This document shows positions 959-45,984 of a stretch of 64,000 nucleotides of DNA, piece after piece. The notes below the pieces were generated by a model, which saw only the letters and a list, made by a program, of their open reading frames with translations, did not search any database and was not told the DNA's origin. The position numbers were made by a program, and so were the translations under genes. How positions within the stretch are numbered: position 1 is the stretch's first letter; every line of letters begins with the position of its first letter. The DNA is from a virus (lineage: Duplodnaviria; Heunggongvirae; Uroviricota; Caudoviricetes): positions 125,081-189,080 of the IMG/VR virus record IMGVR_UViG_3300037067_005176; one strand, written 5' to 3'.

Positions 959-1082
959 CAGTATGATTTTTATAGAACTTTAGTTGACAGACTTTCATAG
1001 AAGAATTATATTTAAATACATAGAAATTTAGAAACGAAATAATTAACTTCTTCCGTTAGGAAGAAAACGATGGAGAATATAA

Positions 1083-3291: not shown

Positions 3292-3357
3292 CACTTATAC
3301 AAAGATGCAAGAAAAACAATATGAGAATTGGATATTCTTTAGCGCGGAGAAATAAAA

Positions 3358-3669: not shown

Positions 3670-4100
3670 TATTGATTTCCCATCGCGGTAATTTGAAAGG
3701 AAGCAATAAAGAACGAGAAAATACGCCTGATTATATCGATGAGGCTATTAACGGTTTGAACTTTGTTGAAGTTGACATACGAATGATAAAAGGAGATTTT
3801 TATTTAGGGCATGACGAACCTAAATATAAAGTATCCCGTTCATGGTTGAATACAAGAAATCACTTCTTAATTCTTCATTGCAAAAATGTTGAAGCGTTAA
3901 AAGAACTAAAGGCTGATTTTAAATGTTTCTCGCATGATAAAGACGATTGTGTTTTGATGTCAAATTGTTTTTGGATTTGGACATATCCGGGTTCTGAACT
4001 TACTGAAGATTCGATTGCTGTAATGCCAGAAGATGCCTTCGGTTGGAATATAAGCAAATGTTACGGAATTTGTTCTGATTTTATTGAAAACTATAAGTGA
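3666..4100 (+). CDS. Glycerophosphodiester phosphodiesterase (GDPD)-like protein
   Basis: N-terminal ISHRG...ENTP...EVDIRM...HDEP matches the GDPD HRG/ENT/E-D/HD motif order. Confidence 0.45.
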   Translation: MILISHRGNLKGSNKERENTPDYIDEAINGLNFVEVDIRMIKGDFYLGHDEPKYKVSRSWLNTRNHFLILHCKNVEALKELKADFKCFSHDKDDCVLMSNCFWIWTYPGSELTEDSIAVMPEDAFGWNISKCYGICSDFIENYK

Positions 4101-4106
4101 GGGTTT

Positions 4107-6013: not shown

Positions 6014-6540
6014 TGGGTATTCCTAATACATTTCAAAACGATTCGTGGTCGTTAATATTTTCTAATATTCCAAATGCTGATCCTAGTGAAGCGATTGATA
6101 ATAAATTATTTGACTTATATGTAAAAAGCTTTGCTTTACCAGATTTACAACTTGATACCGCAAACACGGATTTTAAAGAAGGATCAATTAGACAAGTAAT
6201 GTCAAGAGCAAATGATAATCTTCAACAATTATCTATTGAGTTTAAAGTTTCTGAAGATATGAGAAACTATTTTATCCTATATCAATACTTAATGGCAACA
6301 CGATATGGTAAGATTTTAGATAAACAACAATGGCTTAGAAACAATGTTATAAAAAACATTAAGCTTGTTTGTTTAGATAATCAAAGACGCGAAATTGGCG
6401 GCATGATTTTTACAAATGCGATTATAACAAGCGTTGGCTCTTTGAGTTTACAAATGGGTGTTGCGGACCAGGTAACATTTTCCGTCACATTCTTTTACGA
6501 AGAATCTAAACTTTACACTAAGGAAATATTTGGAACGTAA
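6013..6540 (+). CDS. Hypothetical protein
   Basis: 175-aa ORF, start overlaps previous stop (TAATG). RBS taggag. Confidence 0.5.
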   Translation: MGIPNTFQNDSWSLIFSNIPNADPSEAIDNKLFDLYVKSFALPDLQLDTANTDFKEGSIRQVMSRANDNLQQLSIEFKVSEDMRNYFILYQYLMATRYGKILDKQQWLRNNVIKNIKLVCLDNQRREIGGMIFTNAIITSVGSLSLQMGVADQVTFSVTFFYEESKLYTKEIFGT

Positions 6541-7358
6541 TGTATCAATATCACTACTTGTATAAAATAACCAATCTTATTAACAATAAGATTTATATAG
6601 GAGTACATTCCACTGATAAATTGGATGACGGTTATTTTGGTTCTGGTAGTGCAATAATTTATTCTTTAAAGAAGCACGGTAAAGAAAACTTCAAGAAAGA
6701 AATCCTCGAATGGTTTGATTGGCGTTGTGAAGCTTTAAATCGTGAAGCTGAAATTGTTAATTTTGAATTTGTTAAACAAAGAGATACATATAATCTTCAA
6801 ACCGGTGGATTCAATCCTATTTTGGTATCCAATGAAAGTAAATTAAAAATGCGAAATGCAAAACTTGGAACGCATTCATGGTTGTATGGAAAAAAAGGGA
6901 TGGGATTTGTAAAATCTTGGAACAAAGGTTTAAAATTGAAGCCACTTTCCGTTGAACATAAACAAAAGATTTCAATTAAAGGGCTCGGAATTAAGCGAAG
7001 CGAAACATTTAAACAAAAGTTAAAGGCTGCAGACAAATCTCATCTTTTTGTCGGATGCGAAATTGATAATATAAAATTTCAGTCTATAAAAGAAGCAAAC
7101 GTATATGCTAAGTTTAAATATAATATGGATCCTCATCATGTTATTATTGCTATGAATGATGAAAGTAATAATAAATTTAAGAGATTAAGAAATTTTAAAT
7201 CTTCACAATGCGTAAAGGTTTCAATTGATGGTATAATTTTTGATTCAAAACGATTAGCTGAAGTATATGTTAAAGGAAAATATGGTATAGGACGTTTACA
7301 AATGGAAAACCGATTGACGTCTAACAAGTTTGAAAATTGGGTTACTATAGGAGAATAA
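6540..7358 (+). CDS. GIY-YIG homing endonuclease (Seg-like) with NUMOD3-type repeats
   Basis: YLYKITN...IYIGVHS (GIY-YIG) and repeated G..H..E.K.KIS motifs. Confidence 0.75.
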   Translation: MYQYHYLYKITNLINNKIYIGVHSTDKLDDGYFGSGSAIIYSLKKHGKENFKKEILEWFDWRCEALNREAEIVNFEFVKQRDTYNLQTGGFNPILVSNESKLKMRNAKLGTHSWLYGKKGMGFVKSWNKGLKLKPLSVEHKQKISIKGLGIKRSETFKQKLKAADKSHLFVGCEIDNIKFQSIKEANVYAKFKYNMDPHHVIIAMNDESNNKFKRLRNFKSSQCVKVSIDGIIFDSKRLAEVYVKGKYGIGRLQMENRLTSNKFENWVTIGE

Positions 7359-13470: not shown

Positions 13471-13510
13471 TTTTTAAAATCTGGTTGACAAACAATCGGA
13501 TTTTTTATTT
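13471..13510 (+). terminator. Putative weak terminator hairpin with embedded TTGACA followed by T-run
   Basis: aaaatctggTTGACAaacaatcggatttttt. Imperfect stem, T7 run. Confidence 0.3.
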
Positions 13511-13622: not shown

Positions 13623-14174
13623 ATGATAAAACTAAATCAAGACAAAAAACTGTTCTTTTTATCGGATGCTCATTTGATGCATGCGAATATCATCAAATAT
13701 TGCAATCGCCCATTCGCTGATGCACAGGAGATGACCGAAACAGTTATACGAAATTGGAATAAAGTTGTTACTGATGAAGATCAGATTGTGTTTTTGGGTG
13801 ACTTTATTTGTGGATGTAAAAATGCTAAAGAAACTTCAGAATACTTTTATGAGTGCCTGAATGGCGAAAAGCATTTCATCCGTGGCAACCATGATACCGA
13901 TGATAAGATGTCGGATAAGTTGAATTGGTATAAGAATGATGAGAACCTTTATAGAACTCACTACAAAGGTTATGATTTGGTATTAAGCCACTATCCTTTT
14001 GAGCGAAAACATTTTAAGCCGTTGGCTAATGCGATTTATATTAGTGGTCATACGCATGATACGGATTTGATTTATGATAAATATAATAAATGTGTAAATG
14101 TGTGTTGCGAAGCTGTAAATTATACACCCATTTTATTTGAAAATATTTTAAATGAACTATCAAAGAATATATGA
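13623..14174 (+). CDS. Metallophosphoesterase (calcineurin-like; DAH..GDF..GNHD..GHTH motifs)
   Basis: Ordered MPP motifs read from the translation. Confidence 0.6.
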   Translation: MIKLNQDKKLFFLSDAHLMHANIIKYCNRPFADAQEMTETVIRNWNKVVTDEDQIVFLGDFICGCKNAKETSEYFYECLNGEKHFIRGNHDTDDKMSDKLNWYKNDENLYRTHYKGYDLVLSHYPFERKHFKPLANAIYISGHTHDTDLIYDKYNKCVNVCCEAVNYTPILFENILNELSKNI

Positions 14175-14757
14175 TGCTATAATTGAACGCGCTAAACTAC
14201 GCGGGCTTAACAAGAAGCTTCTTGATGGCTATTTTGAACGTCACCACATCATTCCTAAATGTATGAATGGAACAAATAACAAAGATAATTTAGTTCTTTT
14301 AACAGCTCGTGAACATTATCTTTGTCATTGGCTACTTTGGAAAGCAAATAAAGAAAATTATAAGTTGTTTTATGCATATCATATTATGACAACCGTAAAA
14401 TCGTTTAAGTTATCGTCTAAACAATTTGAAATAATAAAATATGTTCAAAGAAATGTAATGAGCGTTTTAAAGAAAGGCAAAAAATTTAGTGCCACTCATA
14501 AAGAAAACATTAAAAGAAATCATTTCGATTGTTCAAATTGTAATAATTCATTTTTCGGAAAAATTCATTCAGAAGAATCGAGAGATAAAATAAAATTAGC
14601 GTGGGTTGAGAGAAGAAAAACACCGATGACAAAGGATGTTAAATTAAAACATTCCGAACAAAGTTTAGGACGAAAATGGTATCATAATAACAAAGGAAAT
14701 TGTATTTTTACAAAAGATGATGTTGATTGTAATACTTGGTATCCTGGTAGATCATGA
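14152..14757 (+). CDS. HNH homing endonuclease (ERHHIIPK...N...EH..CH)
   Basis: HNH motif. The 5' end overlaps the MPP gene stop. The same 5' sequence is reused at 30377 and 10888. Confidence 0.7.
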   Translation: MNYQRIYDAIIERAKLRGLNKKLLDGYFERHHIIPKCMNGTNNKDNLVLLTAREHYLCHWLLWKANKENYKLFYAYHIMTTVKSFKLSSKQFEIIKYVQRNVMSVLKKGKKFSATHKENIKRNHFDCSNCNNSFFGKIHSEESRDKIKLAWVERRKTPMTKDVKLKHSEQSLGRKWYHNNKGNCIFTKDDVDCNTWYPGRS

Positions 14758-14859: not shown

Positions 14860-15180
14860 ATGAAATTTAAAGATTATGTAAAAGAAAGTCTTTTGCTTGA
14901 GAAGAAAATTACAATCGGCGGAAAGGAGTTCAATTCGGCTAAAGAAGCTGGACTTTATCTTGGATCAATCGGTAAAACTGCAAAAGAGATTATGAAGCTT
15001 ATTGATACAACCGAATCAATGGCCACCTATTATGCAAGAGTTGGATCAAAGATTAAAAGTTCTGCTCCAAAAACTGCTTCGCTTCCAGTTGTTGCGAAGA
15101 CTACAGGAACTTTAACCGGCACAAAAACAATTGCTCCTGGTGCACGGCTTGGGCAAAAACACAAGAATTTAAGTCGGTAA
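14860..15180 (+). CDS. Hypothetical protein, N-terminal-domain paralog of 47333..47830 (GGKEF..DTTE.MA)
   Basis: Strong similarity to 47333 over aa 1-70. RBS ggaggtg. Confidence 0.55.
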   Translation: MKFKDYVKESLLLEKKITIGGKEFNSAKEAGLYLGSIGKTAKEIMKLIDTTESMATYYARVGSKIKSSAPKTASLPVVAKTTGTLTGTKTIAPGARLGQKHKNLSR

Positions 15181-15257
15181 AAGATGTTTCTGATATTCTT
15201 GGACCTCGCGGAAAGTCAAGTGAAGAAGCCGTTATTGCATTCCTTAAAAAGAATAAG

Positions 15258-15491
15258 ATGAGTGATGATCTTATGGCAAATGTTATTGGTTATTACGGTA
15301 TTGATGGTGAAGATTATTTTGATGATAATGGAAATTGGAAAGATACATCAAAGAAAACTGAATCTAAGAAGACTGTACCCAATAAGAAATTCGCTGATAA
15401 GAAAACATTTTCAGAAGATAAACCGTTTATAAAGCATCGTCAGGATAAAAACTTCACACTTGTTGTAAAAAATAAAAAACAACGCCTTTAG
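15258..15491 (+). CDS. Hypothetical protein; possibly the frameshifted C-terminal part of the 14860 gene (frame open from 15057)
   Basis: Frame 0 is open 15057-15491 overlapping the 14860 ORF. GIDGEDYFDDNGN resembles YHDGTGDF..GDEYGN in the single-ORF paralog 47333. Confidence 0.35.
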   Translation: MSDDLMANVIGYYGIDGEDYFDDNGNWKDTSKKTESKKTVPNKKFADKKTFSEDKPFIKHRQDKNFTLVVKNKKQRL

Positions 15492-15747
15492 TATAAATGT
15501 TGGTCCAACTATTGGCGGAGATAAATGACGTACACATTATTCGGGCGAAGCCATTTCAGATAATAACGCTGGTATTATGAAAATTATAAATTCATATTTT
15601 CCAAACACTGTAAAGGAAATGAGTGGTGGCGGATTGTTTGGAAACATTTCCGATGAGAATCCTGATAAAGCTAAAATAGAAAAAATGTATAATGAACTTG
15701 ACACATATTTGGATGAATTGCGAAGCAAAGTAAAGAAATAAATTTGA

Positions 15748-15779
15748 AGACCGGTTGACAAAACAGCCGGTCTTTTTTA
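15748..15779 (+). terminator. Rho-independent terminator (gaccggTTGACAaaacagccggtc + TTTTTT), also containing a TTGACA -35-like hexamer
   Basis: GC stem plus T6. Confidence 0.6.
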
Positions 15780-15808
15780 TTTTTGTTTTTTACTTTGGAG
15801 ACAAAATA

Positions 15809-16444
15809 ATGCTTATTAATATTGAAGTTCCTGATAAGAATGATAACGCTAAAACTATCGCACTTGTTCGTTATGCTATTGATCGAAGAGAAGAACCTAC
15901 AGCAGTTTTATTTGGTTGTTTTTCTCCATTCACAGGTCCAAACGGTCACGGACGAATGCTTCGTTTTGCTTTTGAAAACAACATAAAGAAGTTTGCAGTT
16001 GTGATGCCAACTAAGGATGATTCAAAAGACACTGATAGAAATATGTTTACCCAAGAACAACGACTTAAAATTGCAAAGATTGGCGCAAAAGAATGCGGAT
16101 TTGATGTTGATGTATTCAATGTTGAAACAACAAATCCTCTTGGTATGTTCAGAGAGATCGCAAGTAAGATCGCTAGACCTGTGTTGATTGTTGGGCCTGA
16201 TAGGAAGATTCAGTTTGAAAAGATGTTTTTAACATTCAGTAAAGAAAATAAATATATTACTGATCCTAACGAAAAGAATTTCGGTAAAGGTGAAATGTTA
16301 GGCATGATTGATAGAGGTGATGTTAACACTTCAGCTACCGATGTTAGAAATTCATTGAAAGAAAACAACAAAGCACAATTCATTCGCCTTACAGGCTATT
16401 CAAGTAAGATATATAAATATTTGAAAAGTTTAATAATGCAATGA
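15809..16444 (+). CDS. Cytidylyltransferase-like nucleotidyltransferase (GCFSPFTGPNGHGRML, an (H/T)xGH-type motif)
   Basis: HxGH-like motif of class I nucleotidyltransferases (NMNAT/PPAT/TagD family). RBS tttggagacaaaataATG at 15809; the ORF track starts inside the terminator. Confidence 0.4.
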   Translation: MLINIEVPDKNDNAKTIALVRYAIDRREEPTAVLFGCFSPFTGPNGHGRMLRFAFENNIKKFAVVMPTKDDSKDTDRNMFTQEQRLKIAKIGAKECGFDVDVFNVETTNPLGMFREIASKIARPVLIVGPDRKIQFEKMFLTFSKENKYITDPNEKNFGKGEMLGMIDRGDVNTSATDVRNSLKENNKAQFIRLTGYSSKIYKYLKSLIMQ

Positions 16445-16450
16445 GGCATA

Positions 16451-17380
16451 ATGCGATTTAAACAATTATTTGAAGCTGAAGAAACCGATAGCAACGAAAT
16501 GAATATAAAGGATGTGTTTAAGGTTAAGACAAAACATCCTTTAAACAAATTCGCTAAGCTCACCGTTTATGGTGTACTTAAAAAGTACGTCAAATCTGAG
16601 GATCTTGGAAAAGTTGCTGAAACGCTTGCATCAAGAAAGTTTAATCTTTCTCAAGGAACTCATTCAATTGACGATGCAATTTCTGATATTCCAGTTTCAA
16701 AAGATTTCTTTGAAGAGATTTACAACAAAAAGAAAGACAGGAATATGAATATGATGGGTCCTGGCGAATTGATGCTTTGGGCTATGTATTCAAACGTGAA
16801 TTTCAATCCTACAGCAGGCGATTTAATTATTGATGGAAAGGTTGTTGAAGTCAAAGCCGCAAGAGGACAATTTGGCGGTGATCCTAAGAAAGGATGGAAA
16901 TCTTGGTCTGATGCAAAAGAAAAAGTGAAGAAAGTAGCTGATGATTTGGATATTGATACAAAGGACTTGGATAAAAACAGAAGTTTGGTTCAGGCAAACT
17001 TACCATCATTATTTTCAATCATAAAAGATACTTTTGATTCAAAGAATAGCAAGGAAATATTTGATCTTGCGACTGCGCTTGTCAATAATGAATCCGCAAC
17101 AATCTTTACAACGCAATTGGAAAAATCATTAAAGAAAGCAAAAGATGCTAACGATGCTTGGCTGATGATGCTTGCGGTTCATTCTCAAATTTATCAAGCG
17201 AAGTATAAGTTTGAATATATTATAAAGTTCAATAGCACAAATAGAAAGTTCCCTCATTCTATAACTGTTATAAATCCTAACGCACATTCAATTGAAAGCC
17301 TCGTTGAGTTTTTCAAATCGAATAACATAAGACCTGAAGAATGGGCATCAACTCGCTCAGGTGGAATGGCTGCAAAGTAA
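16451..17380 (+). CDS. Hypothetical protein with possible PD-(D/E)xK nuclease core (GPGEL...GDLIID...VEVKA)
   Basis: E...D...E-V-K order consistent with the restriction-endonuclease-like fold. Starts MRFKQLFE. Confidence 0.3.
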   Translation: MRFKQLFEAEETDSNEMNIKDVFKVKTKHPLNKFAKLTVYGVLKKYVKSEDLGKVAETLASRKFNLSQGTHSIDDAISDIPVSKDFFEEIYNKKKDRNMNMMGPGELMLWAMYSNVNFNPTAGDLIIDGKVVEVKAARGQFGGDPKKGWKSWSDAKEKVKKVADDLDIDTKDLDKNRSLVQANLPSLFSIIKDTFDSKNSKEIFDLATALVNNESATIFTTQLEKSLKKAKDANDAWLMMLAVHSQIYQAKYKFEYIIKFNSTNRKFPHSITVINPNAHSIESLVEFFKSNNIRPEEWASTRSGGMAAK

Positions 17381-17400
17381 AAATAAAATTATTTCTTAAA

Positions 17401-17428
17401 ATCCGGTAAAACCTACCGGATTTTTTTA
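17401..17428 (+). terminator. Rho-independent terminator (atccggtaAAACCtaccggat + T7)
   Basis: Perfect 8-bp stem plus T7. Confidence 0.65.
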
Positions 17429-17459
17429 TTATTGTTGAAACTTTAAAAAGGAATTTTTT

Positions 17460-18575
17460 ATGGGCGGAAATGTAAAACTTCCAACAGGTGAAAGAGCTGA
17501 AAAGATTAACATCGCTCTTATGAATATCGATGCGTTTAACGATTTCAAAAGAGAATTGCGCAATACATTTCATGACTTCAATATTATGTTTGAAAGAACG
17601 TACAATTATCGTTTATGGCCTAAGTATGATATTTTGTTTTCAAATCAAAAGTTATTTTCAGGCTCAACACGATTGATGTTTAAAAAGTCTTTCAGTCAAT
17701 TCGCTTTATATAAACCAAGCGTCGGCGATATTGATATTCAAGTTCCAAACGAATGTATGACAGATCTTAAATCGTTTCTTTTGAATAACCGCAATATGAT
17801 GTTTGGACACTTCAAATATCTTGGCTTTACAAATACTGGGATGCAACTTAATTGCCTTTTTAAAAGCCCTAAAGAATATAAGATGTTCTCTAAGTATGTT
17901 CAGATTGACTTTGAGGGAACTGAATATGTAAATGACGAACCTTCGGAATTTTCAGCTTTTGGACATTACAGTTCTTGGACTGATGTGAAGGCCGGGATTA
18001 AAGGATTTGCAAACAAGTATCTTTTGAGATCGCTCGCTGCAGGTATTGCAAAGGCTGAAGTTGTTATCATCTCAAGCAAGACAGGTAAACCTATTAAATC
18101 AAAGCCGATGGAAAATCTTTTTGGTTTTTCGGTTGATAAAGGATTTAGAGAAAAGATAAAACCAAATTATGATGAGAACGGAAATCATATAATGATTGAT
18201 AATAAGTATTCATATTTTAAGATTGAACCTAAAGATGCAGTTTATGATAAAGATTTGAGTTCAATATTTGAAAAGATCTTTGATGCTTTACCAAGGGATG
18301 GTGAAAAGTATTCTTTATTCTCATTCATTAGAACACTTGATCTTATGAGTACTTATTGTGCAGATTCAATTGTTGAATCGGTGTTTGAAGATTTTGTTGA
18401 ATTACTTTGGGGTAAGGAAGCACAACGGATTGAGCGTGATGATCCGAAGCTTGATGAAGAGATAAAGAACAAGATGTATAAAGCATTTGTTATAAAGTTT
18501 CCAATTCTTAAAGCGAAGAACAAAAGCATTCTTGTTGTGAAAAAATCCTTTTATGAAAATTATAAAATTTCGTAA
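17460..18575 (+). CDS. Hypothetical protein (371 aa)
   Basis: Long ORF. GS...VGDIDIQV is loosely Pol-beta-NTase-like but not convincing. Confidence 0.5.
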   Translation: MGGNVKLPTGERAEKINIALMNIDAFNDFKRELRNTFHDFNIMFERTYNYRLWPKYDILFSNQKLFSGSTRLMFKKSFSQFALYKPSVGDIDIQVPNECMTDLKSFLLNNRNMMFGHFKYLGFTNTGMQLNCLFKSPKEYKMFSKYVQIDFEGTEYVNDEPSEFSAFGHYSSWTDVKAGIKGFANKYLLRSLAAGIAKAEVVIISSKTGKPIKSKPMENLFGFSVDKGFREKIKPNYDENGNHIMIDNKYSYFKIEPKDAVYDKDLSSIFEKIFDALPRDGEKYSLFSFIRTLDLMSTYCADSIVESVFEDFVELLWGKEAQRIERDDPKLDEEIKNKMYKAFVIKFPILKAKNKSILVVKKSFYENYKIS

Positions 18576-18582
18576 AAACCAT

Positions 18583-18611
18583 TGACATTAAAAACAATTT
18601 ACTAAATTTGA
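18583..18611 (+). promoter_or_regulatory. Candidate sigma70-like promoter (ccaTTGACA, weak -10)
   Basis: TTGACA at 18583-18588, poor -10 (atttga/taaatt). Confidence 0.3.
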
Positions 18612-18643
18612 TTCGTCAAACAATTAACAAAAGGTTCTGCTAA

Positions 18644-18973
18644 ATGACAACTCCTGCTACTCTTGCAACAAAGCTCGAAAACATCATCGATCTTCATGCT
18701 GTTCAACATCGTACAACTAAGTTCAGTTATCCTTTTACATCCGACGGTCGTCCTGCTCGTTTCTGGGAAATCTGTTGCTTTGTAGCTGATCGAAAAAACA
18801 CGGCAATCTCCGACATCAATCGCAGCTTTTATGGAAGCATGAAGTCCGATTGGCATAGTGTAATTCTTTATCTTTGCAATGTTGGTTTGCTTTCTCGCCG
18901 TGATGGAGTAATTCGTCCAGGCCATAAACTTGAACAATACCGTCGCACTATTATTGCAGAGATTAATGAATGA
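18644..18973 (+). CDS. Small winged-helix-like protein with C-ending codon bias (probable highly expressed regulator)
   Basis: GC and codon usage differ from neighbours (ctc, atc, cgt, tcc). The antisense ORF 18602..18997 is taken as an artefact. Confidence 0.45.
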   Translation: MTTPATLATKLENIIDLHAVQHRTTKFSYPFTSDGRPARFWEICCFVADRKNTAISDINRSFYGSMKSDWHSVILYLCNVGLLSRRDGVIRPGHKLEQYRRTIIAEINE

Positions 18974-18988
18974 TATAAATATTTTTAT

Positions 18989-19547
18989 GAAATTCAAAAC
19001 ATTGTATGAATCGCTAAATAATATTGAAGCTTTACAAAAGGTGATTTACTCAGGGACGTCACCTGTCTATGTTGCTACTGCAGGTATACAAGGAAGCGGA
19101 AAATCAACATTTGCTAAAGAGAACTTCAAAACTATTGAAATACTTGATCTTGATGAAATCAATAAAGATATTTCAAATGGTGATATGGAAGCGTTTCAAA
19201 GAAATAGATCAAAAGCAATTTCAAAGAAGAATGAGATGCTTAGAGATTTGTTTAAGAAAAGAAAATCATTTATTGATGCAGGTACTGCAGCCAATACTCA
19301 ATCTCTGTTGAAGAAACTTACTTATGCAAAATCTTTAGGATACACAACTGCTGTAGTGTATGTGAATATTCCAATAGAAGTTGCAATTGAAAGAAACTTA
19401 AAACGAATTGAAAGCGGTTCTCATGGAGTTCCCATTGAACGTGTTCAAGAAATTATAAACCGTACAGATATGAATGTTAGACAAACTATTAAAGAAATAA
19501 AAGACAATGCTGATCTTGTTGATTTCTTTATTGAAAAAGGACTATAA
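18989..19547 (+). CDS. P-loop kinase (Walker A GIQGSGKST; AAA_33/polynucleotide-kinase-like)
   Basis: Walker A GxxGSGKST near the N-terminus. Starts MKFKTLYES. Real start likely ATG 18989, downstream of the ORF-track start. Confidence 0.5.
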
Positions 19548-19548
19548 A

Positions 19549-20454
19549 ATGACAATTCAATCAACCGCTCGTAAAGGTATTCCTCACCTTTGGTTCCCAG
19601 GCAATTCAATGGAAATGAAGCCTTTGGATTTTTTGGACTTTATCAAATTACTTAGGCGCAATGCTGGCGTTATAAGTTACAAGAATACAAGTCTTTCTGA
19701 AAAGATTGATGGCGCCGGAATTCGATTCGGATGTGATGTTGATAAAAGATTCTTTATCGAGTCTTCTCGCTCAGGTCCTATCTTTGTACCTAAAGCATTT
19801 TCTAAATTTGCTGAAAACAAATTCGGCTCAACCAACGCAACAGCAAATGGGTATGATGCGATATTCGACGAGTTGGATGCGGATAATGTTTTATACTTTA
19901 TACTCAATAAGTATAACAAAAATGGTATAAAGGTTATAGGCGAAGTTCTTTTAAACCAATTTGGAGTTAAACATGATACTGAACAGAATCTTGTTAAATT
20001 TGTCAATACTTGGTATGATAGTACCAAGTTGGGGTCGTTTGCAACTTTTGTGTTATTTACCGTTCAAGATTCTGAAGGCAATACGCATAGAAGTTCAGAT
20101 GAAATTATAAGCCTACTAAAAGCAATATCAAATGACCGTATAAAATTTGAGACTGCTGAGATCAATGAATTTGAACCTTTAGATTTCTCAAAGCATATTG
20201 AGGGATTTGCAAAGGTTATGAAAACTGCATTTGATAATGACATAGATAACTTTATCTTGAAAAAGAAGAAGGATGCTGATGTTATTCTTTACATAAACAC
20301 TCTCCAAAAAATTCTCAATGCCCATTTATCTGCTTTAATCAATAAAGGAAAGTTTGGGCCAAACTATGAAGGACTTGTATTTGAATTTGATAATAAAATC
20401 AAGTTTAAGATTACAACGGAAACATTTAAAGATGCTAAAAGAAAATCCAAATAA
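19549..20454 (+). CDS. Ligase-like nucleotidyltransferase (motif I KIDGAG, motif IV EGLVFEF, motif V KIKFKI); candidate RNA ligase
   Basis: KxDG lysine-adenylation motif plus EGxV and KxK motifs in the correct order. Lies immediately downstream of the P-loop kinase. Confidence 0.4.
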   Translation: MTIQSTARKGIPHLWFPGNSMEMKPLDFLDFIKLLRRNAGVISYKNTSLSEKIDGAGIRFGCDVDKRFFIESSRSGPIFVPKAFSKFAENKFGSTNATANGYDAIFDELDADNVLYFILNKYNKNGIKVIGEVLLNQFGVKHDTEQNLVKFVNTWYDSTKLGSFATFVLFTVQDSEGNTHRSSDEIISLLKAISNDRIKFETAEINEFEPLDFSKHIEGFAKVMKTAFDNDIDNFILKKKKDADVILYINTLQKILNAHLSALINKGKFGPNYEGLVFEFDNKIKFKITTETFKDAKRKSK

Positions 20455-21481
20455 AATATATTTTAACCTATCAATCACTCCAGATGCAACGACTATAGGT
20501 TGTATTGATAAACATAATCCGCATTGCGAAATTATATTTGATGAAATTTCACGATTGTTAATGAGAACCGAAATTAACAAAGGTTTTCAACACTTCTGGA
20601 AAAAGAAGAAAAATGATAAGCTTTTAAATGAACGAAAACTAATGCATTCGCAATTTATTCAATCCTATACTCTTAAAAACTATTTAAGCGAAATTGATAA
20701 AATTGGACGCGTCTTTGCTAAGCATACATTCGATTGTAAAGATGGAGTGTATCCTTTAAGTGAACTAACAAAAGAAGTTTCAAAATACTTCAATCCCATA
20801 TTCTTTGATAGAATTCTCAATACAAAAATAAAGATCACTCAACCTGTAGAAGGTCCTGGTGAAAACTATTTGTGGTCTTTATTTTCAAATCTTGACTTTG
20901 CTCAAAGCAAGGGAGATTTGGTTGATACGATAAACAACTACAAGATAGAAGTAAAAGGCGATTCAGGTTCATTAGGTTCAAATACTACTGGGCGCGAATG
21001 GAATGAAAAATCTTCTAAAGATTTGTGTTCATTGATTGATACTTCAATAAGTGAAAAAGAAAGAACTTACTTGATGAAGTCTTGTACATTCGGAACTGAA
21101 GTTGCCCGTTGTTTAGAAACCGCTTTAAAATCAAATCCTTCTGATCAGGTGCTTGAAAAGATATGCTATATCATTTCAAATTACAATGACATACCTAAAG
21201 AAGATATTAAAAGCTTTATTCAATTGGTACGCCTTAAACCAGATTATCAAAACATTCTAAAACTTGTTATTGCATTGCATATGAAGCTTTATTCTGAAGA
21301 TGAGAACTTTGATAAATTATTTCTCTTCAACGGAGGATCTGAAAGAAGTATAAATAAATTAATAGTAATGACTGCGAAACAAGACATTTATACTTTGCTT
21401 ACGGATATTGATAAGTATAACATTACTTCAAAGAATTGGGGCGCAGGCAAGAAAGGAATTAGAATAGCAGCAAACATCTGA
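20366..21481 (+). CDS. Hypothetical protein (start uncertain: 20354 TTG, 20366 ATG or about 20429 ATG)
   Basis: Long ORF overlapping the 3' end of the upstream gene. Confidence 0.45.
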   Translation: MKDLYLNLIIKSSLRLQRKHLKMLKENPNKIYFNLSITPDATTIGCIDKHNPHCEIIFDEISRLLMRTEINKGFQHFWKKKKNDKLLNERKLMHSQFIQSYTLKNYLSEIDKIGRVFAKHTFDCKDGVYPLSELTKEVSKYFNPIFFDRILNTKIKITQPVEGPGENYLWSLFSNLDFAQSKGDLVDTINNYKIEVKGDSGSLGSNTTGREWNEKSSKDLCSLIDTSISEKERTYLMKSCTFGTEVARCLETALKSNPSDQVLEKICYIISNYNDIPKEDIKSFIQLVRLKPDYQNILKLVIALHMKLYSEDENFDKLFLFNGGSERSINKLIVMTAKQDIYTLLTDIDKYNITSKNWGAGKKGIRIAANI

Positions 21482-21488
21482 GGTATTG

Positions 21489-22064
21489 ATGAAGTTTAAA
21501 TCTTTATATGAATCAAGCGGAATGCTTTTTGAATATACTCATAGAGAGTTAGTAAAAATGTCAGATGCTGGTCGTAAGCAACGTTCAAAAGGAATGCCTG
21601 CTTATTATAAAGGTTTAACTCAAACCGATGACAAGAAACATCTCAAAACAATTTGGAATGTTAATAGTGCATCAAAACCTGATGTTGTATATGAACAAGT
21701 TGTAGAAGTTATTCCGAAAAAGTCGAATGTATTTAAAATATCAAAAGATAAATGGGATCTTAAACGCTTTGTAGATGTAATGAAAAACTCGGATGTGAAA
21801 GTTTATTGCTCCTGCCCAGATTTCTTGTGGGGTGGCCAAAAGTACAACATTGGACCTCATGGAGATTATGATGATTCTTTAGCACCTGGAAATATTGGTG
21901 ATTTCTTTGATGGAGATAAAGAAGTTGTTGATATTGCTCCAAATGTCAGAGACCCAGAACGTGAACATGTTTTGTGCAAACACTTAATTGCTGTAACAAA
22001 AGTATTCGACGCGAATACAATTGATATTATGAAAGATGCAAAGCGTTTTAAAGTCATTAAGTGA
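21489..22064 (+). CDS. SWIM zinc-finger domain protein (CSCPDF...CKH)
   Basis: CxC-x(n)-CxH arrangement. Starts MKFKSLYES. Confidence 0.4.
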   Translation: MKFKSLYESSGMLFEYTHRELVKMSDAGRKQRSKGMPAYYKGLTQTDDKKHLKTIWNVNSASKPDVVYEQVVEVIPKKSNVFKISKDKWDLKRFVDVMKNSDVKVYCSCPDFLWGGQKYNIGPHGDYDDSLAPGNIGDFFDGDKEVVDIAPNVRDPEREHVLCKHLIAVTKVFDANTIDIMKDAKRFKVIK

Positions 22065-22105
22065 TCATCAATATAAATAATTAAAATTTTAATACGAGGT
22101 TCAAA

Positions 22106-22576
22106 ATGGATAAATATTTAAGCAAAGCTTCTTACTTTATGACTGATTCAGATCAGCTTATTACAGAAGCGAAGAAAGAAGATGCTGCAGCTGCTGTTGT
22201 TATTGCAACAGAAGGCAAGAAAGAAGATGCTGATAAAAAAGTTGTTGCCGCTCTTTCTAAGGACAATTTAACAAAGTTTCCAAACAAGGCTGGGATGTTT
22301 AAAAAGAAGAAAGCGATCAAGGAAGAAGAAGACGAAGAAGATGTCGATGCTGATACTCTTGAAGAGAAGGTTGAAGAGAAGGACGCAGTTCGCGAAGATG
22401 AAGATGACGGTTCCGAAGATGGTGAGAAAGACGAATTGACTGAAGGTGAAGAAGATGATGAAACTGGTGAAGAAGAAGGCGATGAAATTGCTGACGACGA
22501 CCAAGTTGAAGATCCTAAGAAAAAGAAGAATGTTGTTGAAAGCTATTTAGCTCATGCTTCTCGTTGGGTTGACTAA
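22106..22576 (+). CDS. Highly acidic Glu/Asp-rich protein (candidate DNA mimic or scaffold)
   Basis: C-terminal half is more than 50% D/E. Confidence 0.5.
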   Translation: MDKYLSKASYFMTDSDQLITEAKKEDAAAAVVIATEGKKEDADKKVVAALSKDNLTKFPNKAGMFKKKKAIKEEEDEEDVDADTLEEKVEEKDAVREDEDDGSEDGEKDELTEGEEDDETGEEEGDEIADDDQVEDPKKKKNVVESYLAHASRWVD

Positions 22577-22604
22577 TGACTCTAAGTTTTAAATAAACAC
22601 ATAG

Positions 22605-22631
22605 AGCCTGAGACTAGTCTCAGGCTTTTTA
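22605..22631 (+). terminator. Rho-independent terminator (agcctgagac TAG tctcaggct + TTTTT)
   Basis: Perfect palindromic 10-bp stem plus T5. Confidence 0.7.
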
Positions 22632-22693
22632 TCGGATCTCGTGAGAGAAAACCGCTAGGCTAAAGACCTAGCGAATGAATCGAACAAAAATAA

Positions 22694-23614
22694 TTTAACT
22701 TTTTTCGAGGAAATGCTGAATTCCCTAGCTTCAAATCAAGAAAATCAAAGAATTCCTTCCGTGTTCCTCAACACATAACAATTGAAGAAGGTAAAATCCG
22801 AGTTCCAAAATTCAATGACGGTATCAAATTAATAAAACATAGAGAATTCAAAGGCGAGATTCGCCAATGCGCATTCTCAAGAGATTGTAGAAATCAATAT
22901 TTCGTATCTATCTTGGTAGCAACTACCCATGAACAACTACCACACACAGGTAAGCCAGTTGGTATTGATCTAGGTATTAAGGATTTCGCTATAACAAGCG
23001 ATGGTGTTAAGTACAAGAATCATCGTTATACTAAGCGATATGAAAGAGAACTGAAAGTAGCACAACAACATCTATCTCGTAAACAGAAAGGTAGTCGTCA
23101 ATCCGAAAAACAAAGATTGAAGGTTGCTCGTATTCATGAGAAGATATCTAATTCACGAAAAGATACGCTTCACAAAATATCTACCAAAATAGTTGCATCA
23201 TACGATGTGATTTGCTTGGAAGATTTGAATGTGAAAGGTATGGTAAAAAACCATAAGTTAGCTAAACATATTTCGGATTGTGGATGGGGTCTGTTTGTTT
23301 CCATGTTAGAATACAAAGCTAAGTGGAATAATAAACAGATCGTTAGAATCAATAGATTCTTTCCATCATCAAAGACATGCGCTGATTGCGGTTGGATCAA
23401 ATCTAATTTAACGCTGAATGATCGTGAATGGGTATGTGAATCATGTGGATGTGAGCATGATCGAGATGTAAATGCTGCTAAAAACATATTAACAGAAGGT
23501 GTAAGCCTTCTTTCGGTGGGAACCATCGAATACACTGATGGAGACGATGTTAGCCGTAGCAATACGCTGTTGTTTATGAAGTCAGAAGCCCATGAGTCTT
23601 TAGCTCAAGGGTAG
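22694..23614 (+). pseudogene. tnpB: 5'-truncated TnpB (IS200/IS605-family OrfB, RuvC-like; reads ..FRGNAEFPSFKSRK..GIDLGIKDF..CxxC..CxxC..DRDVNAAKNI)
   Basis: Frame open from 22694 (no start codon). RuvC-I GIDLG, zinc finger CADCG..CESCG and RuvC-III DVNAAKNI are present. About 100 N-terminal residues are missing. Confidence 0.6.
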
Positions 23615-27527: not shown

Positions 27528-28328
27528 ATGTTAAAAGGTTTTGTGATTTCGGATATTCACATTGATCATATTGGTAATGGAAGTCCAAGCAGAGACAAGA
27601 TGCTTCGGTATCTTGAACCAAAGTTATGTCCCGCTGATGTAGTTTTTATTGGCGGAGATATTTCAAATAGCGGCTCTGCGTTCTCAAAGCTCGTCGATAC
27701 ACTTAGTGAGTTATATCCTAAGGTTGTATATTGTCTTGGTAATCATGATTACGCAGTGCATCCAAACAAGAATGAAACTTCTTTTCAAAAAGTTGAGCGT
27801 TCTGTTAATGGTGTAAAATCTATCAACTCCGTATTTCTTAATGGTGGGCATCATGATCTTTCAGACTTCACAAGAGTCGGAGGAACTATGGGTGCTTATG
27901 ATATGTCATATTCTGAAAAGCATTTTGGTTTATCATATGATCACATGTTAAGAGAATGGAATAATTGGTATGATGGTCGTTATTGGGATTTGAACGGGAT
28001 GACATACACAGAATTTATGAACCGTGAATTTGATAAGATTGATGATTTGATAAATGATAAGCAGTGCAATATAATGCTTACACATATCGGTCCATTTGCT
28101 TGGGGAATACCACCAAAGTTTCATAACGCACAGACTGGATTCTTTTACTTTGATGGGAAAAGATATCTTGATGCGATGCCAAACGATTCTGTTTGGATTT
28201 TTGGCCATACTCACGATCAAAAAATTCTTGACCTTGGCAACGTTCGTCTTCTTTGCAATCCTCTTGGGTACATTGGAGAAAGCAGAACAACGATTCCAAA
28301 AGAAGAGTTTTTATTTGATATAAAATAA
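27528..28328 (+). CDS. Metallophosphoesterase (calcineurin-like; GDISNSG..GNHDY..GHTHD)
   Basis: Ordered MPP motifs. RBS gcaggag. Confidence 0.55.
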   Translation: MLKGFVISDIHIDHIGNGSPSRDKMLRYLEPKLCPADVVFIGGDISNSGSAFSKLVDTLSELYPKVVYCLGNHDYAVHPNKNETSFQKVERSVNGVKSINSVFLNGGHHDLSDFTRVGGTMGAYDMSYSEKHFGLSYDHMLREWNNWYDGRYWDLNGMTYTEFMNREFDKIDDLINDKQCNIMLTHIGPFAWGIPPKFHNAQTGFFYFDGKRYLDAMPNDSVWIFGHTHDQKILDLGNVRLLCNPLGYIGESRTTIPKEEFLFDIK

Positions 28329-28343: not shown

Positions 28344-28802
28344 ATGATAGTATATGTTGATATGGATAATGTGATGTGTGATTTTAATCGCGCAAAGAAA
28401 TTAGCAATTAAAAACACTCCTGATAATGCGTATCCTCATAGTCAAGTAGATTTTTTTAGACAACTTGAAGAAATTGATGGAGCTATTGATGCTTTGATTG
28501 ACTTATGCGAGGCTGGAATTGACGTTTATATTCTTACTGCACCTTCGACATTGAATCCAATGAGTTATATGGAAAAGATGCTTTGGGTCCGTGATCATCT
28601 TGGACAATGGTGGGTTGAGCGGTTAATTATTAGTAAGCATAAACATCTTAATGTTGGCGATTACCTTGTTGATGATATGGCAGGAGGGTGTGGACAAGAA
28701 CAATTTATAGGCACTCTCCTTCAATTCGGAAGTAAGCAATATCCAAATTGGATCACTGTAAAAGAATTTCTTATTCACAAAAAACAAAGTGAGGATGTAT
28801 GA
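28344..28802 (+). CDS. 5'(3')-deoxyribonucleotidase (NT5C-family HAD; VYVDMDNVMCDF)
   Basis: DMDxV motif I and overall size typical of NT5C. Confidence 0.5.
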   Translation: MIVYVDMDNVMCDFNRAKKLAIKNTPDNAYPHSQVDFFRQLEEIDGAIDALIDLCEAGIDVYILTAPSTLNPMSYMEKMLWVRDHLGQWWVERLIISKHKHLNVGDYLVDDMAGGCGQEQFIGTLLQFGSKQYPNWITVKEFLIHKKQSEDV

Positions 28803-29242: not shown

Positions 29243-29395
29243 ATGAAATGCGGAAAATGTAATATTGGTAAACTTAAATATAATGAGAAAGGTATTTATT
29301 TTTGGTATACTTGTAATAATTGTGATTATGAAACACGCAAAGAAGTAAATACAATAAATAAAAGACTTATAAAAGAGAAAACTTATGGGACGTAA
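29243..29395 (+). CDS. Small zinc-ribbon protein (50 aa; CGKC...CNNCDYE)
   Basis: RBS aaaggag 5 nt upstream. Below the ORF-track cutoff. Same architecture as the - strand zinc-ribbon family. Confidence 0.4.
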   Translation: MKCGKCNIGKLKYNEKGIYFWYTCNNCDYETRKEVNTINKRLIKEKTYGT

Positions 29396-30380
29396 ACTTG
29401 CATCAATTCAGCGCATTTGGAAAATTGAACCAATTGAAGGAGCTGACAGAATTGAATTAGTTCGTGTAATGGGCTGGCAGTGTATAGCAAAGAAAGAAGA
29501 GTTCGAAAAGTATGATCTATGTGTATACATCGAAATTGACTCTGTATGCCCAAAAGAAGATGAACGATTTGCTATGCTTGCTTCAACCAATTGGAAGGTT
29601 AAAACAAGAAAGATGAAAAATACTCTCTCGCAAGGTATTGCATTACCACTTTCTTTATTCGGCTGGACTGATGCTGATGTTACACTTGAAGAGGATGTTT
29701 CTGAAAAGCTAGGTATTAAACTTTTTGAAAATTATGAAACATTTAATGCAGTCGAAGCAAAAGGTGGATTTCCAGGATTCATTCGTAAGACTGACCAAGA
29801 AAGATCAGCCAATTTAAGTCAAAAAACTTATGAAAATTATAGCAAAATGAAATTTGAAGTTACTGAAAAATGCGAAGGATCTAGTTCCACTTGGTTTTTA
29901 CGCGATAATGAATTCTTTGCATGTTCTCGCAATCTTGTGATGAGACTTATTGACGGTTCTCGTTGGAAATATTTAAACTACAAATACAATCTTGAAAATA
30001 AGTTAAAAACTTATGGAAAGAATATTGCTATTCAAGCGGAAATATTAGGGCCAGGAATACAGAAAAATTATTATGGTTTAAGTTCTTATGAGATTAAAAT
30101 ATTTGATGTGTTTGATATTGATGCACAAAGATATTTAAATCCTGATGAAAGATATAAAGTTCTTGAAGAGCTAGGTCTTATGCATATTCATGTTCCAATT
30201 GTGCATAAAGAATTTTCGTTTGAAGGAATAACTCATGATGAGTTGATGAAATTAGCCAACGGAAAATCTATGATTTCTTCAAACAAGATTCGTGAAGGTT
30301 TGGTTTATAAGTGCATATCAAATGGAGATTATCACTTTAAAACCGTTGATCCAATTTACTTGCTCAAAGAAGATCAATGA
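29385..30380 (+). CDS. RNA-ligase-family nucleotidyltransferase-like protein (variant motif I EKCEGSS, motif IV EGLVYK, motif V FKTVD) with N-terminal extra domain
   Basis: EGxVxK motif IV and K-x-[DE]-G motif I in appropriate order and spacing. Confidence 0.4.
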   Translation: MGRKLASIQRIWKIEPIEGADRIELVRVMGWQCIAKKEEFEKYDLCVYIEIDSVCPKEDERFAMLASTNWKVKTRKMKNTLSQGIALPLSLFGWTDADVTLEEDVSEKLGIKLFENYETFNAVEAKGGFPGFIRKTDQERSANLSQKTYENYSKMKFEVTEKCEGSSSTWFLRDNEFFACSRNLVMRLIDGSRWKYLNYKYNLENKLKTYGKNIAIQAEILGPGIQKNYYGLSSYEIKIFDVFDIDAQRYLNPDERYKVLEELGLMHIHVPIVHKEFSFEGITHDELMKLANGKSMISSNKIREGLVYKCISNGDYHFKTVDPIYLLKEDQ

Positions 30381-30637
30381 ACTACCAAAGAATATATGAT
30401 GCAATAAAAAGAACTTCTATTGCTAATAAAGGCCGTAAAAATACAATTGAATCGAATAAGCGAATAAGCGACTCTATAATTGGAAAGCACAAAGGCTTAA
30501 AAAATCCAAACTTTGGAAAGTATAATACGGATTCACCAAACTATGGAAGAAGATGGTTTCATAATAAAATCGGTGAACGCGTATACAAAAATCCGGATGA
30601 AGTTGATCATAACATTTGGATTTTTGGTATGAAATGA
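30377..30637 (+). pseudogene. Internally deleted HNH endonuclease relic (MNYQRIYDAI... lacks the HNH catalytic motif)
   Basis: N- and C-termini match 14152..14757 but the middle (ERHHIIPK...EHYLCH) is absent. Confidence 0.45.
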
Positions 30638-32852: not shown

Positions 32853-32874
32853 TATTTAAAACAAAGGAATGATT

Positions 32875-33996
32875 ATGAATAAGAAATACAAATTAACTAA
32901 AGAGACTATAGTCATTAGTTCATCAACTTTATATAGAATAAAGGCTCTAATTGACATTCCTTCTTCTAATGTTAAAAAAGGTGATCCGGGTGGATTCATT
33001 GAAAATGAATCCAATCTAAGTCATGAAGGTTCTTGCTGGGTCGCTGATAATGCAAGAGTCTTTGGTGATGCATGGGTCTTTGGTGATGCATGGGTCTTTG
33101 GTTCTGCAAGAGTTTATGGTAATGCAGGTGTCTTTGGTAATGCATTGGTCTTTGGTAATGCATTGGTCTTTGGTAATGCAAAGGTCTTTGGTTCTGCAAA
33201 GGTCTCTGATAATGCAAGAGTCTATGATAATGCATGGGTCTATGGTAATGCAAGAGTTTATGGTTCTGCATGGGTCTCTGGTAATGCAAAGGTCTTTGGT
33301 AATACATGGGTCTATGATAATGCAAGAGTTTATGGTAATACAAATGTCTATGATAATGCAAAGGCCTATGGTGATGCATCGGTCTATGGTGATGCAAAGG
33401 TCTATGGTGATGCATTGGTCTATGATAATGTAAAGGTCGCTGATAATGCAAGAGTCTTTGGTGATGCATGGGTCTTTGGTGATGCATGGGTCTTTGGTTC
33501 TGCAAAGGTCTCTGATTCTGCAAGAGTTTATGGTTCTGCAAGAGTCTCTGGTGATGCAAGAGTCTATGGTTCTGCAAAGGTCGCTGGCAATGCAAATGTC
33601 TTTAGTAATGCAAAGGTCGCTGATAATGCATGGGTCTATGGTAATGCAAGAGTCTCTGATAATGCAAGAGTCTTTGGTAATGCAAAGGTCTATGATAATG
33701 CATTGGTCTATGATAATGCAATAGTCTCTGGTTCTGCAAAGGTATATGGTGATGCAAAGGTCTATGATACTGCAAGAATCTATGATAATGCATTGGTCTT
33801 TGGTAATACATGGGTCTATGGTAATGCATTGGTCTCTGATAATGCACCTGCGGTAGCGAAGTATTATATTGATGGTGAACAGGTTTTATTTGAAGTATTT
33901 AAAGAGCGGACTAAAGAACCTGAAAATGAAGTTGTTATGACCATAAAAGAAATTGAACAAAAACTTGGAATACCTAATTTAAAAATTACACGGTAA
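32875..33996 (+). CDS. Hexapeptide-repeat (left-handed beta-helix-like) protein, family copy 1: conserved 55-aa N-module plus about 45 tandem x-V-[FYS]-[GD]-[NDS]-A repeats
   Basis: Protein periodicity of 6 aa, DNA periodicity of 18 bp. N-terminus MNKKYKLTKET..TLYRIKAL..KKGD.GGFIENESNLSHEG.CWV shared with 43431 and 47016. Confidence 0.65.
   Translation: MNKKYKLTKETIVISSSTLYRIKALIDIPSSNVKKGDPGGFIENESNLSHEGSCWVADNARVFGDAWVFGDAWVFGSARVYGNAGVFGNALVFGNALVFGNAKVFGSAKVSDNARVYDNAWVYGNARVYGSAWVSGNAKVFGNTWVYDNARVYGNTNVYDNAKAYGDASVYGDAKVYGDALVYDNVKVADNARVFGDAWVFGDAWVFGSAKVSDSARVYGSARVSGDARVYGSAKVAGNANVFSNAKVADNAWVYGNARVSDNARVFGNAKVYDNALVYDNAIVSGSAKVYGDAKVYDTARIYDNALVFGNTWVYGNALVSDNAPAVAKYYIDGEQVLFEVFKERTKEPENEVVMTIKEIEQKLGIPNLKITR
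33041..33850 (+). repeat. 18-bp tandem coding repeat array (hexapeptide repeats)
   Basis: Units of the form ggtaatgcaaaggtcttt repeated about 45 times with variation. Confidence 0.7.
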
Positions 33997-45962: not shown

Positions 45963-45984
45963 ACCAAAAAGGAAGAGACACAAA

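Follow-up and report, generated by a model that had tools for sequence, protein, structure and literature searches.

A kinase and a minimal RNA-ligase-like protein of a T4-like phage belong to a larger conserved module that may heal and seal broken RNA

The locus studied here raises the question of whether a kinase gene and an adjacent ligase-like gene of a large phage act together in nucleic acid repair, on which substrate, and with which partners. A sequence-only reading of the window, that is, the whole 64-kb stretch of phage DNA analysed here, had placed the two genes at 18989-20454 and proposed that they form a 5'-kinase plus RNA/DNA ligase repair module of the kind T4 uses against anticodon nucleases. 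Phage RNA repair is a classic counter-measure against host anticodon nucleases, and to our knowledge few enzyme sets for it have been defined (T4 Pnkp/Rnl1, Pnkp/Hen1, and RtcB with RlaP). The source phage is T4-like, with a genome of roughly 189 kb, and the genomes that carry homologues of the ligase are T4-like as well, with gp32, UvsX, gp41, gp59, and gp44 present.

The window is AT-rich (GC ~32%), with the + strand carrying almost all coding from position 1 to ~52 kb. A megablast search of 15000..23000 against GenBank phages gave zero matches, no tRNA genes were found across the 64-kb window, and sigma-70 promoter-like sites showed no excess in the sequence relative to shuffled controls. 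The interval is filled by two abutting + strand open reading frames (ORFs), so the proposed pair is real, and the ligase-like ORF lies at 19549..20454 exactly as first described. The kinase ORF is equally real but its start had been misplaced: the ATG is at 18987 (18987..19547, N-terminus MKFKTLYES), whereas 18989 lies 2 nt further on and in another frame. An in-frame ATG at 18966 could provide an earlier start, yet the MKFK start is found in 9 of 10 homologues. A single base separates the kinase TAA from the ligase ATG, and the same 1-nt junction is present in two related loci, L005 and L006, with ligases 50% and 40% identical to that of the window, respectively. The spacing suggests that the kinase and ligase are most likely made from one translationally coupled message.

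Profile matches identify the 186-residue product of 18987..19547 (+) as a P-loop 5'-kinase of the polynucleotide-kinase, bacterial Pnkp type. Pfam returns AAA_33 (E 1.8e-11) and Zeta_toxin (9.2e-8), PHROGs returns family 505 'polynucleotide kinase' (2.2e-12) as well as, over its kinase portion, an 'RNA ligase' family of 737 positions, and NCBIfam returns bacterial Pnkp (TIGR04075, 1.1e-9), a match that covers model positions 11-145 only, with a score of 37 bits where the cut-off is 750. In the PDB, the kinase domain of Clostridium thermocellum Pnkp (CthPnkp) ranks first with the single sequence (1e-4), and a profile built from 11 homologues improves this match (4gp7) to 8.9e-8, ahead of shikimate kinase (6.5e-3), the family that follows. 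The Walker A motif GIQGSGKST (aa 33-41, 19083..19109, +), which the sequence-only reading had quoted correctly together with the ligase strings KIDGAG, EGLVFEF, and KIKFKI, is invariant in the 11 homologues and aligns through K39 and S40 with the CthPnkp P-loop. Asp56 (19152..19154, +) corresponds to CthPnkp Asp38, D97 to Asp78, and the outer arginines of R136-N-L-K-R140 (19392..19406, +) to Arg116 and Arg120. The protein thus has the GxxGxGKS/T P-loop, a catalytic aspartate after strand 2, and the RxxxR motif; we take the roles of these active-site residues, including that of Asp38 as general base, from the CthPnkp literature. The arginine of the DxxR motif is missing: N59, aligned with CthPnkp R41, and the following K60 are, like D56, invariant. 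On this basis, 18987..19547 most likely encodes a 5'-OH polynucleotide kinase, which resembles bacterial Pnkp and not T4 Pnk. With its single kinase domain it has no fused HAD or metallophosphoesterase, and since a second domain is lacking, so is a 3'-phosphatase; nor is one present in the ligase-like protein, so that the 3'-phosphatase domain contemplated earlier is absent from the pair.

The product of 19549..20454 (+) is a minimal covalent nucleotidyltransferase, RNA-ligase-like and 301 residues long, without an OB or C-terminal domain. A word-seeded search retrieved 27 homologues, from metagenome sources only (JGI, ENA, and Logan), and in the resulting alignment of 28 sequences the nucleotidyltransferase motifs I, III, IIIa, IV, and V are collinear and conserved. 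Motif I, EKIDGAG (19699..19719, +; KIDGAG at 19702..19719), contains the predicted AMP acceptor Lys52 and has invariant E51, K52, D54, and G55; motif III, KVIGEVL (19930..19950, +), has invariant K128 and E132; motif IIIa, FVLFTVQD (20047..20070, +), has nearly invariant F167 and D174; and motifs IV, EGLVFE (E274, G275, and V277; EGLVFEF at aa 274-280), and V, KIKFKI (aa 283-288, with K287), together span 20368..20412 (+) with invariant columns. R59/G61 and E71/S75 are invariant as well. Motif III was assigned by order and by its hhalign register with a second, Rnl5-type ligase encoded in the window, a comparison of the two families that places motifs III and IIIa in register but is not significant by itself. 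The model obtained with AlphaFold2 from the ligase alignment (pLDDT 92.5, pTM 0.87) has the nucleotidyltransferase fold and consists of little else: ~45 residues precede motif I, 14 follow motif V (K287), and a helical insert at approximately aa 205-265, between motifs IIIa and IV, is missing from a 264-residue subfamily.

The affiliation of this protein to RNA ligases comes from several sources. Pfam RNA_ligase (PF09414) matches the window ligase with 23.2 bits (E 8.3e-5), below the gathering threshold of 27 bits, and is matched at E <= 0.01 by 19 of the 28 family sequences, the best at 8.4e-10; a member of the 264-residue subfamily matches PHROG 548 'RNA ligase'. PDB searches at the sequence level retrieved no ligase above noise, whether started from the single protein or from the family profile, whereas fold comparison links the protein to known ligases and finds RNA ligases nearer to it than any DNA ligase. 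BFVD contains an 'uncharacterized' 300-residue relative from an uncultured phage (UniProt) at TM 0.78. A further structural match, at the fold level only, is to a 591-residue 'cytidyltransferase-like' protein of Synechococcus phage S-PM2. An exhaustive profile search recovered at least 548 ligase cluster representatives at E <= 1e-3; 204 of these reach <= 1e-30. The objection that neither protein of the pair might resemble a ligase or polynucleotide kinase fails, because both match those families significantly, by profile or by fold.

None of the Rnl1, Rnl2, and Rnl5 subclasses accommodates the protein in full. Searches with PF21189 and TIGR02306, which mark Rnl5, gave no match, the C-terminal helical domain that follows motif V in Rnl2 is absent, and neither an Rnl1-specific family match nor a C-terminal tRNA-specificity domain was found, so that the likeness to the T4 repair pair does not extend to Rnl1. 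We conclude that the ligase is most likely a minimal Rnl2/Rnl5-like nucleotidyltransferase domain and a predicted ATP-dependent sealing enzyme. The replicative DNA ligase was considered as another identity and rejected, because the related phage L007 keeps a separate canonical DNA ligase. T4 Rnl2 cut back to an equivalent extent is not known to perform step 2 of nick sealing. Such a bare domain might instead nucleotidylate ends or small molecules, through RNA 5'-adenylylation, capping, or protein AMPylation, with the kinase and a HIGH-type nucleotidyltransferase encoded nearby preparing the substrate or the nucleotide donor; we regard this as quite improbable.

The family matches of both proteins, together with the 1-nt junction conserved in independent lineages, support the kinase plus ligase module as proposed, but the pair turns out to be only part of a larger conserved one. 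The most constant partner of the ligase is not the kinase but 'p371' (17460..18575, +), a nucleotidyltransferase that belongs to the Pol-beta superfamily, represents a new family within it (PHROG 19290), and carries the motifs MGGN, G68-S69, D90xD92, and D150. p371 adjoins the ligase in L003-L007, L012-L014, and L041, and a shorter homologue, p297 (hhalign E 1.7e-4; GGN, G-S-T, GDIDI, and QxDF motifs common to both), lies directly after the ligase in 26 of 34 IMG/VR loci. A third partner is 'CTPt', a HIGH-type (cytidylyltransferase-like) nucleotidyltransferase at 15809..16444 (+; PF01467, 6.6e-6), the conserved motifs of which (GxFxPxTG..GH, GPDR, and S-x-T-x-V-R) look intact. Local BLASTP among the top 150 ligase representatives revealed at least 17 p371-ligase fusions, six CTPt-ligase fusions (P0108, P0110, P0115, P0119, P0121, and P0158), and three ligase-p297 fusions. 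CTPt is in addition fused to p371 in P0048, P0055, and a 607-residue protein of L004, and to a kinase in L021 and L023, where a protein of 726 residues in L021, encoded two genes after ligase-p297, combines CTP_transf_like, an AAA_33 kinase domain, and DUF5824; by hhalign (94.6%, E 6.8e-8), its AAA_33 part is a homologue of the window kinase. P0115, one of the CTPt-ligase proteins, has a tRNA-nucleotidyltransferase (CCA/poly(A)-polymerase head) domain in addition (PF01743, 1e-12; PHROG 2244, 3e-21). The fusions are known as protein sequences, and for P0157 a read-through artefact is countered indirectly by the normal sizes of the neighbouring genes.

Phosphoesterases frequently complete the set. 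A 183-residue calcineurin-like metallophosphoesterase at 13623..14174 (+; Pfam Metallophos, 1.4e-8), a candidate 3'-end healing enzyme, has homologues that immediately follow the ligase gene in L004, L007, L012, and L014; in L006, the homologue is part of the same block. In L001/L002, L015, L017, and L043, the gene immediately preceding the ligase encodes not the kinase but a 201-residue HAD-type protein with a DIDET (DxDxT) motif, a further class of end-healing enzyme; a PDB sequence search with this HAD-like neighbour returned nothing. The kinase itself adjoins the ligase only in closer relatives and is elsewhere off the flanks or, as a fusion, two genes away. The p371-ligase link is not universal either, since p371 homologues of cultured Campylobacter and Vibrio phages, annotated 'hypothetical', have adjoining genes without a ligase annotation. 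Adjacency alone is weak evidence because T4-like genomes are broadly syntenic, and most weight therefore rests on the fusions. As adjacency and fusion recur across distant clades, ligase, p371, CTPt, and kinase are linked, with a phosphoesterase often alongside, in an enzyme set that is previously undescribed. The literature consulted, which did not cover the census of Burroughs & Aravind 2016, contains no description of a HIGH-type nucleotidyltransferase as an RNA-ligase partner. We also considered that CTPt might be the phage NMNAT, an identity rejected because the phage has a separate NMNAT-Nudix gene, which makes NAD synthesis by CTPt unlikely. tblastn searches with the ligase against 50,697 GenBank phage records, and with CTPt and the CTPt-ligase fusion P0119 against phages, returned zero matches, and therefore no cultured reference is anchored by sequence.

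These linkages also bear on the alternative that the adjacency is incidental and that the kinase, unrelated in function to the ligase, acts on nucleotides or small molecules as an AAA_33 or zeta-toxin relative, or on bases in DNA hypermodification. The breadth of the AAA_33 and Zeta_toxin families, the missing DxxR arginine, the persistence of gene order in T4-like genomes without functional coupling, and the many ligase homologues without a neighbouring kinase would all be expected in that case. However, polynucleotide kinases come first in each of four libraries, several orders of magnitude ahead, the 1-nt coupling is kept at 40-50% ligase identity, a distant clade has a protein, encoded two genes away from the ligase, that joins a homologous kinase domain to the HIGH-type nucleotidyltransferase, and a phosphatase substitutes for the kinase in the same slot, so that we consider an accidental neighbourhood highly improbable.

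Further genes of the block are shared with relatives. Between p371 and the kinase lies a small conserved ORF of 109 codons (18644..18973, +), which matches no family in Pfam or PHROGs; its homologue in L006, 59% identical, occupies the corresponding place. Two further genes encode paralogous proteins (BLASTP E 1e-14): 'p309' (16451..17380, +), conserved in L006, with the tag MRFKQLFE-A and a GPGE..GDL..EVK motif that we would guess to be PD-(D/E)xK-like, and 'p349' (20432..21481, +), which overlaps the stop codon of the ligase gene and is presumably transcribed together with it. No relationship of either to p297 was found. A SWIM zinc-finger protein (21489..22064, +; Pfam SWIM, 2.3e-4), tagged MKFKSLYE-S and conserved in L006, closes the co-oriented block, before a terminator-like hairpin at 22002.

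No Pfam family matches p371 at E <= 1, a PDB profile search with it returned nothing, and PF10127 (RlaP) matches neither p371 nor p297; in fold comparison, the RNA tailing enzymes TENT2 and TUT7 score as high as DNA polymerases of family X. DNA is accordingly a live alternative substrate, because p371 is as like family-X DNA polymerases as it is like RNA tailing enzymes, and the same enzymes could form a kit for break and nick repair on the phage genome, in which ends are cleaned, gaps filled by p371, and the ligase seals, in the manner of PNKP-Pol beta-Lig3, ASFV PolX plus ligase, or bacterial LigD. Kinases of this type do act on DNA ends too. We nevertheless judge a DNA kit fairly unlikely in view of a ligase fold that is nearer to RNA ligases and lacks the OB domain, the tRNA-nucleotidyltransferase domain included in one fusion, the canonical DNA ligase also kept by a related phage, and the RNA tailing enzymes that match p371 as well as the DNA polymerases do.

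Building on the observed folds, families, catalytic motifs, and linkage by adjacency and fusion, we therefore favour RNA and propose that the module probably heals, refills, and seals broken RNA. As trigger, we infer that a host ribonuclease, such as an anticodon nuclease, cuts RNA, most plausibly tRNA, which would then present 2',3'-cyclic or 3'-phosphate and 5'-OH ends. In the order of steps that we envisage, the metallophosphoesterase (13623..14174) would free the 3'-OH, with the HAD phosphatase taking the place of the kinase in other lineages; the kinase would phosphorylate the 5'-OH end; p371 could restore lost 3' nucleotides, as RlaP does; and the ligase would self-adenylylate on Lys52, move AMP to the 5'-phosphate, and seal the break. 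CTPt would belong to the same unit. Such a combination has precedents, as phage RNA ligases cooperate with a kinase, a HAD or calcineurin phosphatase, and a Pol-beta nucleotidyltransferase associated with the ligase (PMC7824862), and RlaP adds 1-2 NMP to damaged RNA 3'-OH ends (PMC12776372). Two features of the pair speak against this reading: the ligase is without an OB or C-terminal domain, and the kinase has N59 in place of the DxxR arginine.

Many proteins of the region share an N-terminal tag. A search at ORF starts for M-[KRSGA]-[FL]-[KRST]-x(1-3)-aromatic/aliphatic-...-E found it in 12 + strand ORFs within 7.9-22 kb, plus one at 47333, with ~0.3 expected by chance; the tagged proteins include the kinase (MKFKTLYE-S), p309, and the SWIM protein. 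In distant clades, a tag of 10-12 residues, in which residues 4 and 7 are aromatic and residues 8-10 read (L/I/M)-x-E, is found on the ligase (MKSFKKFLIE, MLSFSQYMTE), the HAD protein (MKSFKQHIEE), and p297. [quoted passage not shown] In the T4 sequence, targeting depends on residues 4 and 7, and cleavage by the gp21 prohead protease on residues 8 and 10 (PMC9026906). In p297 and ~10 of 23 p371 members, the tag ends in ...L-x-E right before the invariant GGN, whereas the remaining p371 members, that of the window included, start M-GGN; this is suggestive of a removable propeptide, whose expected appearance it has. A possibility is that the module proteins are injected with the phage DNA. The full version of this idea, an undescribed four-enzyme repair or remodelling system (CTPt, kinase, the 'GGN' protein p371, and minimal ligase) packed into the capsid via targeting propeptides and injected with the DNA, seems to us unlikely. 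Were it true, repair capacity would precede any phage gene expression, and repair enzymes would be delivered as internal head proteins, of which we know of no earlier case. As a corollary of this idea, CTPt, fused in turn to kinase and ligase, might adenylylate the 5'-phosphate and so aid the bare ligase domain, supplying a step that this nucleotidyltransferase domain may perform poorly.

The module is not the only repair equipment of this phage. At 29385..30380 the window encodes the Rnl5-type RNA ligase mentioned above (PF21189 and PF09414; TIGR02306, 3.6e-41), whose neighbours are a second metallophosphoesterase and an NT5C-type HAD protein, and it further encodes an RtcB (50600..51760) and a CCA-adding or poly(A)-polymerase-type enzyme (48309..49574). 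The minimal ligase, the Rnl5-type ligase, and RtcB thus give the phage three candidate RNA-sealing enzymes, and it has been argued that multiple RNA ligases in one phage are not redundant (PMC7824862). The locus defines a ligase family of at least 548 cluster representatives that tblastn did not detect in 50,697 GenBank phage records, and the fusions of its members to a new Pol-beta nucleotidyltransferase and to a HIGH-type one outline a concrete, testable multi-enzyme pathway. The minimal ligase is, moreover, a candidate RNA ligase for biochemistry and biotechnology.

Among known systems, T4 Pnkp plus Rnl1 tRNA repair likewise joins a phage 5'-kinase to an ATP-type RNA ligase for 5'-OH breaks, in a genome of the same type (T4-like myovirus). 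Relative to Rnl5 (Naegleria NgrRnl and Deinococcus DraRnl; TIGR02306), the minimal ligase is missing the defining N-terminal OB-like domain PF21189, which the Rnl5-type ligase at 29385..30380 has; relative to Rnl2 (T4 Rnl2 and trypanosome REL1), it lacks the all-helical C-terminal domain, reads EKIDGAG at motif I, and has motifs IIIa and IV separated by a helical insert. Bacterial Pnkp/Hen1, with its Rnl4 ligase domain, contributes the nearest solved relative of the window kinase (4gp7), and a calcineurin-type phosphoesterase is associated with bacterial Pnkp as it is with the module described here. The same logic is found in the RlaP systems (PF10127), in which a Pol-beta-fold nucleotidyltransferase is persistently tied to an RNA ligase, with kinase and phosphatases, and lost 3' nucleotides are restored before sealing; RNA-ligase-associated Pol-beta nucleotidyltransferases were described by Burroughs & Aravind 2016, as cited in PMC7824862. 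In contrast to RlaP, p371 and p297 constitute a separate family (PHROG 19290), in which an N-terminal GGN is invariant, and their link to the ligase reaches direct fusion and extends to a HIGH-type nucleotidyltransferase. Phage end-healing and sealing are known already; what is new here is the minimal ligase and its fusion-supported partners.

Beyond the kinase-ligase module, a probable RNA end-healing and sealing set, the window carries further candidate RNA-repair enzymes. A canonical Rnl5-type RNA ligase (29385..30380; PHA02142 OB domain plus RNA_ligase, with TIGR02306 matched at 3.6e-41) lies shortly downstream of a 266-aa metallophosphoesterase (27528..28328) and an NT5C-type HAD protein (28344..28802), and the three may constitute a second healing and sealing set. 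An RtcB 3'-phosphate RNA ligase (50600..51760; PF01139 at 2.6e-58) and a CCA-adding or poly(A)-polymerase-type enzyme (48309..49574; PF01743, PF12627) are also encoded, and ARAGORN detects no tRNA genes in the 64-kb window.

The module's HIGH-type nucleotidyltransferase at 15809 is separate from a second CTP_transf_like gene (45835..47019), which is fused to a NUDIX domain as in the NMNAT-Nudix proteins of NAD salvage. Among the ligase-family profile-search matches are giant proteins of 1000-2000 aa (P0200, P0205, P0210 and others) that begin with a fusion of the ligase to p371, the module's Pol-beta-fold nucleotidyltransferase, and continue with NTP_transf_2, Amidoligase_2, DUF6934, FAD_syn-like and ParB_N domains, a layout similar to 'polyvalent protein' architectures. 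Structurally, the ligase model matches a 591-aa protein of the cultured cyanophage Synechococcus phage S-PM2 (A0A0M6VVW4; BFVD, E 7e-8, TMq 0.54) annotated as 'cytidyltransferase-like domain-containing protein', which may represent a fusion of the HIGH-type nucleotidyltransferase and the ligase in a cultured phage.

Directly after the module, a TnpB-like ORF of just 233 aa (22913..23614; OrfB_IS605 and Cas12f1-like TNB) lacks the N-terminal half and therefore represents a truncated IS605-family element; the surrounding region (~22.6-26.4 kb) is higher in GC and partly minus-strand, and in the metagenomic phage loci L001/L002 the ligase homologue has full-length TnpB genes in its vicinity. Homing-endonuclease-like genes occur at 6540..7358 (GIY-YIG/SegE with NUMOD3 and an I-TevI DNA-binding domain), 41730..42602 (GIY-YIG) and 14152..14757 (NUMOD3), the last sharing the start MNYQRIYDAI with the ORF at 30377..30637. 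Three paralogous ORFs (32869..33996, 43431..44162 and 47016..47201) likewise have a common start, MNKKYKLTKETI, and YdcK beta-solenoid or bactofilin-like repeats are present in both of the paralogues examined. Finally, Pfam matches identify a radical-SAM/SPASM protein and a HAD-NTP_transferase fusion within 201..4850, where the neighbouring genes look glycosyltransferase-like on sequence alone; related phages (L001, L007) carry NeuB, sialyltransferase-family and methyltransferase genes, and the region may encode a sugar or nonulosonate pathway.

A common N-terminal tag (MRFKELYE, MKFKDYVKE, MKSFKKFLIE and the like) ending in (L/I)xE heads many unrelated proteins, with 12 instances in the window against ~0.3 expected. 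Tagged ORFs start at 7995, 8733, 9202, 11266, 11922, 13192, 14860, 16451 (p309), 18987 (the kinase), 21489 (a SWIM zinc-finger protein) and 47333, and tagged proteins recur in loci L001, L010, L011 and L015-L040 (in L021 at 5636, 5932 and 6867). Within the nucleotidyltransferase family of p371 and its shorter homologue p297, it forms an optional extension, stopping exactly in front of the invariant GGN N-terminus. The tag resembles the T4 capsid-targeting sequence and gp21 cleavage site.

Terminator-like hairpins followed by T runs (13476..13504, 15746..15775 and 17398..17424) bound the gene blocks 13623-15741, 15809-17380 and 17460-22064. TTGACA lies inside or beside the loop in two of the three, so that a -35-like box overlaps the hairpin. 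Promoter-stem-loop cassettes have been reported for T4-type phages, and the overlapping arrangement is reminiscent of these.
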